From NCBI RefSeq assembly GCF_024502345.1, contig NZ_JALDNN010000002.1: a stretch of DNA of 64,000 nt. One strand, written 5' to 3'. The translations under genes and the position numbers were made by a program. Below, one piece after another: positions 31,581 to 35,428 of the stretch (positions within the stretch are counted from its first letter, which is position 1; every line of letters starts with the position of its first letter). The notes under the pieces were generated by a model that was not told the DNA's origin, searched no databases, and was given only the letters and a program-made list of their open reading frames with translations. The DNA is from Escherichia coli. Its GTDB lineage: Bacteria > Pseudomonadota > Gammaproteobacteria > Enterobacterales > Enterobacteriaceae.

Positions 31581-31769
31581 CATCCACCCCCGACACAATC
31601 CGCTGAAGGAATGGCAATTCTGTTCACCACATTTGCTAAGAGATCAGGACTTACTTTGTAATCTGGAAGTACATCGAAGTTGCAACAATAGTACACTATT
31701 GCGTGACGTAGATTCGTGACGTATAGTTACTGCAACTTATTTGTTTATAACTACCGTCAGGTACAAAAT

Positions 31770-31926
31770 TATGTCTCCAGCACAAGCTAAACAAAAGCAG
31801 CATGAACGCTACGAAGCCGTAGCGGTGCAGGTTTTGCGTGGTCGTGCCGGTTACAAACCTGCCGTGAAAAGCCGCTTCAGTAAGTCAGCCAGTAGCAAAT
31901 TCTCTCATACTATCGCTTTTGCCTGA
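31770..31926 (+). CDS. Small basic hypothetical protein (52 aa)
   Basis: ORF only, preceded by an AT-rich region; may not be real. Confidence 0.25.
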
Positions 31927-31974
31927 TCCTGAACTTTGAGGCACAATAAACCATCATTCGCTGATGGTTTTTTT

Positions 31975-32967
31975 ATGCCTGTTCAAGACGTTATTCCCCC
32001 CTATGAGCAGATGTACCTGCTAAATCAGCAGCTGATCTGCAACGCTGACCAGTTCAAACATGCCGTTATCACAGTTGGCGGTCAGGCTGTGCAATACTGG
32101 ATATCCTATTATCATGCACAATATGGCGACAGATTGCCTGATGAGCGTCTCACCACTTCTGTTGACTGCGACTACAGCGCCCGGAAAGATGATATTGCGG
32201 CTATAGCAAAAACGCTCAACGTTAAGACGTGGGAGAACAAAGACGGCCAGCCCCCATCCCTTGGACAGTTTATGCTTATCGATCAGGACACACACGATAT
32301 CAAACGGGATGATGGACGCTTATTTGCCGTACCGGATGCGCCTGACGAGCCAAATGTGGTGGATATTATCGACCGACCCGGAGGCTTTGACCGTTCTGAT
32401 TTTCTGGGGGAAAAGCTTTACCTGTATACCGCCCCGTTTTATGTAGAAGCAACCGGCCCCGGTATGCCTGAAATGAATGAAAAGGTAAGGGTGTTGAACC
32501 CTGTCGCCTGTATGCGCTCGCGCTTTAGCAATCTGATTGCCTTGCGCCGTGATGCTGAAATTGAAATTGCGCGTATTAACGCGCTCAAGATCCCGTGTTA
32601 TTTCTTTCTCATCGAACAGTTTGATGAACAGCCGTTCAAAGTTGCACGAGGAATCTTTATGGATTTGTGGTGGCTCGCGAATGACGAAAGCTGTCTGCGC
32701 CATCAGGCCTTCTGGCATAGCTGGCAGGGGCCGCTTCTTGAAGGGCAACAAAGTAACAACATCACTCTGATTGATGTGTTGGAAGGCGTACATGCATACC
32801 TGGAAGGGCATCTTGATGACTTTGAAATACCGGAAGCCTTTGTCACCAAAGAATTACCGCTAAAGCTCGCACAGCTGCGTGAACGCTGGGAGCGTTACGT
32901 GGTACTCAATGCTGAATGGGCAGCAAGAGGGCGCAGGGGATTTGAACGTAATCGCCGTGATGATTAG
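31975..32967 (+). CDS. Hypothetical protein (about 330 aa) with a possible nucleotidyltransferase-like GG...DxD motif
   Basis: ORF 31936..32967; motif ITVGGQAV...SVDCDY; natural stop codon TAG forms part of the IS5 target site. Confidence 0.45.
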   Translation: MPVQDVIPPYEQMYLLNQQLICNADQFKHAVITVGGQAVQYWISYYHAQYGDRLPDERLTTSVDCDYSARKDDIAAIAKTLNVKTWENKDGQPPSLGQFMLIDQDTHDIKRDDGRLFAVPDAPDEPNVVDIIDRPGGFDRSDFLGEKLYLYTAPFYVEATGPGMPEMNEKVRVLNPVACMRSRFSNLIALRRDAEIEIARINALKIPCYFFLIEQFDEQPFKVARGIFMDLWWLANDESCLRHQAFWHSWQGPLLEGQQSNNITLIDVLEGVHAYLEGHLDDFEIPEAFVTKELPLKLAQLRERWERYVVLNAEWAARGRRGFERNRRDD

Positions 32968-34163
32968 GGAAGGTGCGAATAAGCAGGTCATGTCTTCCCA
33001 AGCTGACTCGTTGATTAAAATTTCGCGGATCTGGGCCGATTTTTTTCCCGCAAACACATCGAATCAGCCTATTTAGGCTATTTTTTCCACCATTTCTGGC
33101 GTTATTTCCGGTTTTTACTGAGATCTCTCCCACTGACGTATCATTTGGTCCACCCGAAACAGGTTGGCCAGGGTGAATAACATCGCCAGTTGGTTATCGT
33201 TTTTCAGCAGCCCCTTGTATCTGGCTTTCACGAAGCCGAACTGCCACTTGATGATGCGAAACGGGTGCTCCACCCTGGCACGGATGCTGGCTTTCATGTA
33301 TTCGATGTTGATGGCCGTTTTGTTCTTGCGCGGATGCTGCTTCAAGGTTTTTACCTTGCCGGGACGCTCGGCGATCAGCCAGTCCACATCCACCTCGGCC
33401 AGCTACTCGCGCTGTAGCGCTCCTTGGTAGCCGGCATCGGCTGAGACAAATTGCTCCTCTCCATGAAGCAGATTACCCAGCTGATTGAGGTCATGCTCGT
33501 TGGCCGCGGTGGTGACCAGGCTGTGGGTCAGGCCACTCTTGGCATCGACACCAATGTGGGCCTTCATGCCAAAGTGCCACTGATTGCCTTTCTTGGTCTG
33601 ATGCATCTCCGGATCGCGTTGCTGCTCTTTGTTCTTGGTAGAGCTGGGTGCCTCAATGATGGTGGCATCCACCAAAGTGCCTTGGGTCATAATGACGCCT
33701 GCTTCGGCCAGCCAGCGATTGATGGTCTTGAACAATTGACGGGCCAGTTGATGCTGCTCGAGCAGGTGGCGGAAATTCATGATGGTGGTGCGATCCGGCA
33801 GGGCGCTATCCAGGGATAATCGGGCAAACAGGCGCATGGAGGCGATTTCGTACAGGGCATCTTCCATGGCACCGTCGCTCAGGTTGTACCAATGCTGCAT
33901 GCAGTGAATACGCAGCATGGTCTCCAGCGGATAGGGCCGTCGGCCATTGCCCGCCTTGGGATAAAACGGCTCGATGACAGCGGTCATATTCTGCCATGGC
34001 AGAATCTGCTCCATGCGGGAGAGGAAAATCTCTTTTCGGGTCTGACGGCGCTTAGTGCTGAATTCACTATCGGCGAAGGTGAGTTGATGGCTCATGATGT
34101 CCCTCTGGGATGCGCTCCGGATGAATATGATGATCTCATATCAGGAACTTGTTCGCACCTTCC
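32968..34163 (-). mobile_element. IS5 copy D with perfect 4-bp TTAG target-site duplication; transposase inactivated by a point nonsense mutation
   Basis: TTAG at 32964..32967 and 34164..34167; ORF split into 33403..34095 and 33115..33393. Confidence 0.92.
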
Positions 34164-35428
34164 TTAGGATTTTCGCCACTGAATAAATTATAATAAATTG
34201 ATTTTATAAGATATTCGTCATGGGCTATATGACCAGTACGAGTTGCATGCTCTAATGTTTCAGATGCCAGTATATGTGCGGCTTCAGCAAACATCCCAGG
34301 CCAACCCTTACTCAGCATAGACAGTCCTTTAAGGACTCTTATCTGAATCTCCCTCATACTCGCACCATCACGTGCAACAGGTAAGAAAAAGTCTTCCAGT
34401 AGGTCTTTGATCTGAAGTGGCGCAACATGTACTGAAGGATATATCACTTCAGTTTCATCTATTTTATTCTGCGCGTAAGCGGAGAGTATTCGAACACCTC
34501 TGCCAATGACATCAATCGCAGTACCGGGATCGTTTACTGCGGGCGAAAGGGCCCTGCAGGCTATTTCGGCCATGACGCTGAGACAGAATCGGGGATCCTG
34601 AGCAAATGAACGCACATCCGAGACAATGATCGTTTCAAGTAAATCGGTACAGATTGATGACTCCTGACCAGAACTCAGGTACAAAACTGGCATCGATGGA
34701 TGTATGAAACTGCCTGGCTGCGCCACAAGATATACATGACGAGGATCATTGCTCAGCAGACTGCCGAGCTTGACCATGTCAATATATTCAACATAGCCAA
34801 TTTTCTCCGGATATACGGCAACAGTTCCTTTTGGTTGTTCATTGTTCTCAAGCCATGGATATCCGCCAAGACATGGACTTTTTGCTCTCGCAATAAATGT
34901 CTCGATCGCCGCCTGTTCTACTTTTGCTGTTGTCTCACCTACCCTGCCCAGAGAGGTCAAATGCTGTATCCAGCGAAGCAATGTGATGATTATTAAGGCA
35001 ATGACAACCAGTGTTACAATGAATAAAATGACTCTACCCCTTTCTCCGTAGGCTCCCATATTGAGGGCAATAATCCCTACCAGGCTGAAGAGAAAAGAAC
35101 CGATAAAAGTGGCCAGTACATTTTGTGTGGTTACGTCTTCTACAACTAAACGCGTGGCTCTGGGCGTCACATTAGTAGTGGCTGAACCGTAAGCGGTGAC
35201 CATGATACTCAGTGAAAATGTGGTCACCGCCAGCATACTCGATGCCAGTATGTTCAGAATATTATCAACTGCTTCCGCACCAACCTTCACTGATACTGAC
35301 TCTGGGATCATTGATCTAAAAAGAATAGATAAAAGGGCCGTTATTATTGCTACCATTGCAAATAACGTTGCCCTGAACCATAGTTTTTTAAGTGTCTGCC
35401 TGAGAATCCATTGCCAGCGTAAAATCAT
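34164..35428 (-). pseudogene. Membrane protein (N-terminal TM helices plus soluble domain; possibly DUF2254-like), last about 22 codons displaced by the IS5 insertion
   Basis: 430-aa ORF 34136..35428 ends in IS5-derived codons; original C-terminus found in ORF 32906..33133 on the other side of IS5. Confidence 0.55.

Follow-up and report, generated by a model that had tools for sequence, protein, structure and literature searches.

Organization of the locus

We analyzed a 64,000-nucleotide (nt) stretch of an Escherichia coli contig (NZ_JALDNN010000002.1, assembly GCF_024502345.1), referred to here as the window, in which a copy of the IS5-family insertion sequence (IS) ISKpn26 lies between two convergent genes. 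To its left is module 1 (31648-32967, plus strand), comprising a conserved upstream region, a small open reading frame (ORF), and the gene for a nucleotidyltransferase-fold protein. To its right is module 2 (34164-37495, minus strand), comprising the genes for a DUF2254 membrane protein and a BCCT-family transporter. The genes and features of the locus are as follows.

31648-31770, plus strand: conserved upstream region, presumed promoter/operator, delimited by the onset of homology.
31771-31926, plus strand: small basic protein of 51 amino acids (aa), WP_000074143.1, candidate partner or antitoxin, recognized as a conserved upstream ORF.
31948-31970, plus strand: terminator-like hairpin, 9 bp plus a T-run, from a terminator scan.
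31975-32967, plus strand: nucleotidyltransferase-fold protein, 330 aa, WP_001145102/WP_166791864 type, with an intact frame.
32906-33133, minus strand: junction-spanning 75-aa ORF, WP_306292279.1, from the ORF list, the RefSeq/PGAP annotation, and our reconstruction.
32964-32967: left TTAG, already present natively at the nucleotidyltransferase 3' end, as seen in intact copies L005 and L006.
32968-34163, minus strand: IS5-family element ISKpn26, 1196 bp, from its terminal repeats, its length, and the RefSeq annotation of matching copies.
33115-34095, minus strand: transposase gene of this IS5 copy, with a premature stop at 33403-33405 (E231*).
34136-35428, minus strand: DUF2254 membrane protein, 430 aa, WP_023304011.1, from its match to Pfam PF10011.
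34164-34167: right TTAG, already present natively at the DUF2254 3' end, as seen in intact copies L001 and L002.
35492-37495, minus strand: BCCT-family transporter gene, annotated betT in identical plasmids.

A probable recombination joint at the IS5 copy

The element at 32968-34163 shows the ~1.2-kb length and the 16-bp terminal inverted repeats (GGAAGGTGCGAA[TC]AAG) of the IS5 family, its own ends reading GGAAGGTGCGAATAAG and CTTGTTCGCACCTTCC, and it is 99.3-99.7% identical to RefSeq plasmid copies annotated as ISKpn26. TTAG adjoins the element at both ends. An earlier note on this DNA, made from the sequence alone, had singled out this copy as the only IS5 with a perfect 4-bp repeat around it, and the observation is correct: of the five full IS5 copies in the window, the other four have flanks of CTAA/TTAG, CTGT/TTAG, CTAG/CTAA, and CTAA/TTAA. 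Because those flanks are mismatched, each of the four is itself a recombination or deletion joint. They lie at 1410-2605, 6001-7195, 19602-20797, and 61091-62286 and are 92 to 99.8% identical to the ISKpn26 copy of plasmid pEC81-mcr10; an additional IS5 left-end repeat is found at 60775, 316 bp ahead of the last of them.

The earlier note took the matching flanks for the target duplication of a simple, probably recent, insertion into a pair of convergent genes that had originally overlapped. Two observations favor that account. The TTAG is indeed the same on both sides, and removal of the IS and one TTAG in silico leaves an open 440-aa frame on the minus strand that overlaps the 3' end of the other gene by 62 nt. 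However, intact copies of both genes are available, and they continue differently. L005, a pKpQIL-type plasmid of Klebsiella pneumoniae, and L006, an IncFIA plasmid of E. coli, carry the nucleotidyltransferase gene with an intact 3' junction, in which GATGATTAG is joined to CCTCCTTTGGGC, and beyond GATGATTAG the native DNA runs into CCTCCTTTGGGCTGAAA; 820 plasmid records carry this native junction without interruption. The intact 3' junction of the DUF2254 gene, read on the plus strand, consists of GGTTTTTTATTAG joined to GATTTTCGCC in plasmids L001 and L002. It is found unbroken in 53 plasmid records and also in Enterobacter chromosomes, and the Enterobacter asburiae chromosome aligns with the native plasmid DNA through the target site to ~70 nt past the DUF2254 stop, at ~80% identity. 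With distinct native 3' contexts established for the two genes, we conclude that the two flanks were never contiguous.

Searches with the reconstructed site agree with this conclusion. No plasmid record covers the empty site when it is presented as a 600-nt query across the junction; the two halves of the query match separately, and the DUF2254 half ends within one base of the TTAG. In such an empty site the nucleotidyltransferase 3' end would pass straight into GATTTTCGCCACTG. The DUF2254 tail that was supposed to have been lost, NHHGDYVQIPCALLLPIQH, is what the nucleotidyltransferase gene's 3' end gives when translated in antisense. The same stretch forms the tail of the 75-aa ORF WP_306292279.1, which extends across the IS5 left end and the nucleotidyltransferase antisense strand and is probably a junction artifact, not a real gene.

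What the IS changed in the DUF2254 protein is small. The native protein (WP_000625672.1; L001, L002, and many other plasmids) has 425 aa and the C-terminus GENPNKKP*. In the window, residues 1-421 are kept and NKKP is exchanged for KEGANKFLI, encoded where the ORF runs 28 nt into the IS, so that four residues were replaced by nine and not the approximately 22 residues claimed earlier. The minus-strand ORF of 430 aa exists as described, at 34136-35428.

The distribution of the two junctions provides further evidence. The nucleotidyltransferase-TTAG-IS junction occurs in 48 plasmid records and the IS-TTAG-DUF2254 junction in ~59. Both are present on one IS copy in only 10 plasmid records, among them pEC81-mcr10; the window and this plasmid are colinear over window positions 24173-38768 and 40125-50176. 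The right junction is also found with other left flanks: in an E. coli IncI plasmid (L020) the left flank is unrelated and the pair is again TTAG/TTAG, and in a K. pneumoniae IncR plasmid (L021) the left flank is CTAG. Likewise, the left junction has two further right-hand partners, in L003 and L004. Because two different left flanks give TTAG/TTAG with one and the same right flank, the identity of the flanks cannot be read as a duplication.

IS5 prefers YTAR as its target. Among the 16 IS5 flanks that we read, TTAG accounts for 2 of 8 on the left and 6 of 8 on the right, and from this small sample the expected frequency of a chance match between unrelated flanks is about 1 in 5. By these sequence comparisons, the match is a product of the YTAR target preference, each native site having already been TTAG. 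The flanks stem from two native loci, and are not the 4-bp YTAR duplication that a simple insertion leaves.

The element itself is also informative. Position 33405 is A in this copy and C in six of the seven other copies compared, and the resulting stop (E231*) shortens the transposase from 326 to 230 aa, leaving ORFs of 230 and 92 aa. The change is shared with the copy in plasmid pMX581-77k (L004) and absent from that in pEC81-mcr10 (L007); the transposases of the pEC81-mcr10 copy and of copy C of the window are intact when translated, and the change at 33405 is missing from another four copies. The copy thus lacks the intact ~326-aa DDE transposase of its family; by sequence it is an IS5 member, but autonomous transposition is improbable. 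It differs from the pEC81-mcr10 copy at four positions, and its single-nucleotide polymorphisms form a mosaic between the pMX581-77k and pEC81-mcr10 copies. The mosaicism and the premature stop are consistent with exchange among copies and speak against a fresh insertion by the element's own transposase.

Taken together, these observations lead us to regard the ISKpn26 copy at 32968-34163 as very probably a recombination joint between two modules that were never neighbors. In the proposed sequence of events, one ISKpn26 would have inserted at the TTAG that holds the nucleotidyltransferase stop codon, and another at the TTAG 11 nt ahead of the DUF2254 stop; the two junctions would then have been merged onto one IS copy by homologous recombination between ISKpn26 copies. 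Such recombination is the most likely origin of the joint, with an IS-mediated adjacent deletion as a viable alternative. Homologous recombination of ISKpn26 has been documented in clinical Enterobacterales resistance plasmids (He et al. 2016, PMC5142620). One point weighs against the proposal: a simple-insertion precursor of either gene (native flank-IS5-native flank) was not found in the plasmid collection, searched in the expected orientation of the IS and without the opposite orientation or the E. coli genome collection. The queries combined the IS5 right end, TTAG, and the DNA downstream of the nucleotidyltransferase gene, or the DNA downstream of the DUF2254 gene and the IS5 left end. 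Because neither precursor was found, both the succession of events and the preference for recombination over adjacent deletion are inferred.

The absence of a precursor for the DUF2254 junction from the plasmid collection would also suit a joint formed in one step, in which an ISKpn26 at the nucleotidyltransferase stop transposed intramolecularly into the DUF2254 TTAG and deleted the intervening DNA, the remaining flank combinations being the work of later recombination. The right flank also begins exactly at a native TTAG. We consider this course of events quite unlikely. The IS-DUF2254 junction occurs without the nucleotidyltransferase flank in ~49 records (IncI, IncR, and other backbones), for which an independently existing IS-DUF2254 junction is the simpler account. 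In addition, homologous recombination of this element has precedent, and the transposase of the present copy is truncated, although it could have been supplied in trans or mutated later. To the single clean insertion with a true TTAG duplication we give next to no credence, in view of a reconstructed site that no plasmid record contains, two genes that continue differently in many records and in chromosomes, a DUF2254 C-terminus (NKKP) that is conserved in relatives, junctions that recur with other partners, including a second TTAG/TTAG pair, and a match of flanks that chance would give in about one case in five.

We conclude that the IS5 junction is routine plasmid mosaicism. It carries a caution of wider use, in that matching 4-bp flanks around an IS with a strong target preference are no proof of a simple insertion. 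Taking the TTAG match as a duplication here would yield a false overlapping gene pair and a 440-aa protein that never existed.

A nucleotidyltransferase gene with a conserved small partner

As the earlier note stated, the stop codon of the plus-strand gene (TAG) lies within the left TTAG. Because this TTAG is retained, the 330-aa frame is intact; the protein is unaltered by IS5, and only the native 3' flank of the gene was lost. The start is ATG 31975, as indicated by RefSeq and by the N-termini of homologues, and the 343-aa ORF beginning at TTG 31936 is too long.

A GG...DxD motif had suggested a nucleotidyltransferase, and this guess is supported by both the alignment and the predicted structure. 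G35 G36 Q37 A38, S62 D64 D66, D130, R183 N186, and E197 R200 are invariant among homologues, and the hG[GS] loop, the [DE]x[DE] pair of the following strand, the third carboxylate of a neighboring strand, and the alpha/beta core of the Pol-beta superfamily can all be recognized. The AlphaFold model has a mean predicted local distance difference test score (pLDDT) of 88.8 and a predicted template modeling score (pTM) of 0.87. In a Foldseek search of AFDB it matches its own family and then, over the full length, proteins annotated as AbiEii/AbiGii (E values of 1e-11 to 1e-8, TM-scores of 0.57 to 0.64). On the basis of this model, the protein has a Pol-beta-type nucleotidyltransferase fold and catalytic signature, with a predicted overall shape like that of AbiEii and MenT.

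A word-indexed search for homologues listed 80 proteins, of which all those with organism names come from Enterobacterales, and a profile search returned 416 proteins at E <= 0.001; the AFDB neighbors widen the family to Vibrio and Shewanella. The distant relatives from the profile search are homologous to the family at an hhalign probability of 99.95%, and one of them matches DUF2204 at 9e-4. A scan of PHROGs matched the 330-aa protein only to an unnamed family. Sequence searches of solved structures with the protein, as a single sequence and as a profile, found nothing, and literature searches by protein accessions and by pKpQIL together with toxin-antitoxin and nucleotidyltransferase returned nothing relevant.

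The gene is preceded by the small basic ORF (31771-31926, 51 aa), whose presence ahead of the plus-strand gene had already been noticed. We compared nine diverged loci, from Dickeya, Budvicia, Erwinia, Superficieibacter, Pantoea, Providencia, Serratia, a metagenome contig, and the present window, and an ORF of 50 to 56 codons stands ahead of the nucleotidyltransferase gene in all nine. These ORFs share an N-terminal K..QH..Y motif and a C-terminal [IV][AS]F[AF], and the ratio of nonsynonymous to synonymous substitution rates (dN/dS) is 0.07 to 0.26. Since it is present in all nine loci and under purifying selection, we take the small ORF to be real and linked to the enzyme gene. Upstream ORFs are also present in two much more remote relatives; they encode 59 and 64 aa, and one stops 3 nt before the nucleotidyltransferase start codon while the other overlaps the start. 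In an AlphaFold model of the two proteins fused through a flexible linker, the small protein has a pLDDT of 80 to 91, including its non-helical tail, and the linker has ~33, which suggests that the small protein and the enzyme may form a packed complex.

The surrounding noncoding DNA is conserved as well. The DNA becomes homologous to the Dickeya chromosome, and to plasmids of E. coli and K. pneumoniae, at 31648. Over the 123 nt ahead of the small ORF, identity to Dickeya is 90%, compared with 85% for the small ORF itself. This upstream region contains a palindrome, CAATAGTACACTATTG, and two copies of CGTGACGTA, all of which look like operators from their sequence; in a simple scan of the region, no sigma-70 consensus was detected. 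Between the two genes, the T-run of the terminator-like hairpin at 31948-31970 abuts the nucleotidyltransferase ATG, and no Shine-Dalgarno sequence for this gene is obvious outside the hairpin stem. In a consensus fold over eight loci the stem is kept across genera, with compensatory changes on both sides in three of nine pairs, and the hairpin may set the ratio of small protein to enzyme.

Distribution and possible function of module 1

The nucleotidyltransferase gene is carried by ~1079 plasmid records, which include the pKpQIL-type carbapenemase backbone and many other clinical Enterobacterales plasmids. Module 1 is found on IncF-type plasmid backbones, and it is also scattered in Enterobacterales chromosomes, where its neighbors differ among Dickeya, Pantoea, Providencia, Erwinia, Budvicia, Superficieibacter, and Serratia. 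A compact two-gene operon, a conserved partner, and a patchy spread are the generic marks of toxin-antitoxin systems, and module 1 has all three. Because the fold, the conserved small partner, the hairpin, and the scattered sites are found together, the pattern resembles that of a mobile toxin-antitoxin-like system.

Based on its likeness to known systems, we give even weight to the possibility that module 1 is a toxin-antitoxin-like pair resembling MenA1/MenT1. A more specific proposal, to which we give somewhat less than even weight, is that it would represent a new MenT/AbiEii-like toxin-antitoxin family serving plasmid addiction or phage defense, with a basic mini-protein as antitoxin and an expression ratio set by the hairpin. 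In such a system, the nucleotidyltransferase would add nucleotides to RNA, for example, to the 3' end of tRNA, the 51-aa protein would bind the enzyme directly and block its activity, and the hairpin would hold expression of the enzyme below that of its partner. The suggestion in the earlier note of a toxin with a small partner is plausible by this analogy, and the conserved partner is there; it applies to this pair alone, which is separate from the BCCT/DUF2254 module.

Several points weigh against a toxin-antitoxin assignment. Structural matches among solved structures are weak (Foldseek E of ~0.02), even though the top ones are nucleotidyltransferases. Neither the 330-aa nor the 51-aa protein matches any model in Pfam, NCBIfam, or the PADLOC defense set; in particular, the PF08843 profile gave no match at E <= 10 for the 330-aa protein, 39 members of its family, or 20 distant relatives. 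The fusion model was built on nine paired sequences and judged by pLDDT alone, and the covariation term of the hairpin is small (-0.64 kcal/mol).

The competing view is that the 330-aa nucleotidyltransferase is not a toxin: it would modify small molecules (antibiotics, as ANT and Lnu enzymes do) or be a benign RNA- or protein-modifying enzyme, and the small ORF would encode a regulatory subunit or a leader peptide governing read-through of the hairpin. We regard this as rather unlikely. The modeled full-length fold, with its core and apparent C-terminal helical domain, fits the AbiEii/AbiGii type better than the short resistance enzymes, and the module is also found in the chromosomes of plant-associated genera at varied sites. 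Moreover, the small ORF shows purifying selection throughout, and its product is confidently modeled with the enzyme, and a leader peptide need show neither property.

Other assignments were considered. A HEPN-MNT pair was rejected, since the enzyme is too large for one and its partner lacks a HEPN domain, and a CBASS-type cyclase (cyclic-oligonucleotide-based antiphage signaling system) was rejected, as PADLOC gave no match. An attempt to reach PF08843 via the distant relatives failed, these too being without a match.

The module occurs in about 1000 sequenced clinical plasmids, the pKpQIL backbone included, and falls outside current families. If it is a toxin-antitoxin or defense module, it would be relevant to the stability and host range of these plasmids, and if the toxin-antitoxin reading is true, the small protein would represent a new antitoxin type for MenT/AbiEii toxins.

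The DUF2254 protein and the adjacent BCCT gene

A check for DUF2254 had been suggested for the 430-aa protein, and it gave a clear match to PF10011 (E of 5.5e-91; residues 15-369 of 430, model positions 3-366 of 368). In relatives encoded by Enterobacter chromosomes the protein ends in NKKP or NKRP, and the tail is variable among relatives. The exchanged tail lies outside the conserved domain and is probably harmless; because the Pfam domain stops at residue 369 and the tail varies, loss of function would not be expected.

The BCCT gene lies beside the DUF2254 gene, as the earlier note had recognized, at 35492-37495 on the same strand. The arrangement of a BCCT gene, a 65-nt gap, and a downstream DUF2254 gene is kept in the chromosomes of E. 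asburiae and Leclercia adecarboxylata, whose DUF2254 proteins are 89% and 73% identical, respectively, to the plasmid protein. Because order and spacing are conserved in Enterobacter and Leclercia chromosomes, the plasmid pair is a captured chromosomal unit. This conservation supports a functional link between the DUF2254 protein and the transporter, and we propose that the two would act together, which fits a transport or osmotic-stress module. The osmostress module suggested in the earlier note therefore finds some support in the conserved pair, within the limit that it concerns this module only. A literature search for the function of DUF2254 found nothing relevant, and the conserved pairing with a BCCT transporter offers a first functional lead for this domain.

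Other features of the window and related plasmids

Upstream of module 1 lie two serine-recombinase (resolvase) genes, both 5'-truncated and arranged head to head (30825-31472, minus strand; 31290-31580, plus strand) and connected by ~80%-identical inverted segments; a full-length resolvase is found upstream of module 1 in the K. pneumoniae plasmid L003. By colinearity with pEC81-mcr10, the region at ~24200-31000 is a redox/stress cluster with genes for a DsbA-family oxidoreductase, an alkene reductase, a thioredoxin, a carboxymuconolactone decarboxylase-family protein, a TetR regulator, and OsmC. A VapBC system and a HEPN nuclease gene lie farther upstream of this cluster.

A ~346-bp segment occurs four times in the window (21748-22093, 55994-56342, 59488-59833, and 63705-64000) and is also found ~450 bp downstream of the native DUF2254 gene in L001 and L002, beside a transposase fragment and an IS110-family gene. 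The repeated segment probably represents the end of another mobile element. In pMX581-77k (L004, 7537-12568), the nucleotidyltransferase-IS5 junction recurs and leads into three tyrosine recombinase/integrase genes and a further gene annotated as a nucleotidyltransferase; a study of mcr-10 reported ISKpn26 upstream of xerC in some mcr-10 loci.

Comparison with known systems

The joint resembles the recombination products described for ISKpn26 by He et al. (2016, PMC5142620), as the element is the same, at 1196 bp with identical terminal repeats, and one IS copy is flanked by DNA of two origins. It differs in that the flanks share 4 bp that mimic a target-site duplication, and in that no precursor plasmid was detected in the plasmid collection. 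Module 2 corresponds to the chromosomal pairs of a BetT-like BCCT transporter and a DUF2254 protein in Enterobacteriaceae, with the same gene order, ~65-nt spacing, and DUF2254 proteins that are 73 to 89% identical; only the copy in the window has a C-terminal tail encoded by an IS.

Module 1 can be compared with two systems whose toxins belong to DUF1814. In MenA1-MenT1 of Mycobacterium tuberculosis, the antitoxin MenA1 is a 68-aa protein encoded upstream that blocks the active site of MenT1 by direct binding (PMC7450476, PMC10435456). The protein studied here has no detectable sequence similarity to MenT1, is larger (330 versus 197 aa), and has ~28 residues between the GG and DxD motifs. Its partner is an unrelated, strongly basic 51-aa protein, and a terminator-like hairpin separates the two genes.

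The second comparison is with AbiEi-AbiEii, a type IV toxin-antitoxin and abortive-infection system (PF08843). Here, neither PF08843 nor the PADLOC AbiE models are matched, and the partner is not a winged-helix protein of the COG5340/AbiEi type. In contrast, the best full-length structural neighbors of the nucleotidyltransferase outside its own family are proteins annotated as AbiEii/AbiGii, and its model appears to share the two-lobed arrangement of a nucleotidyltransferase core and a helical domain.

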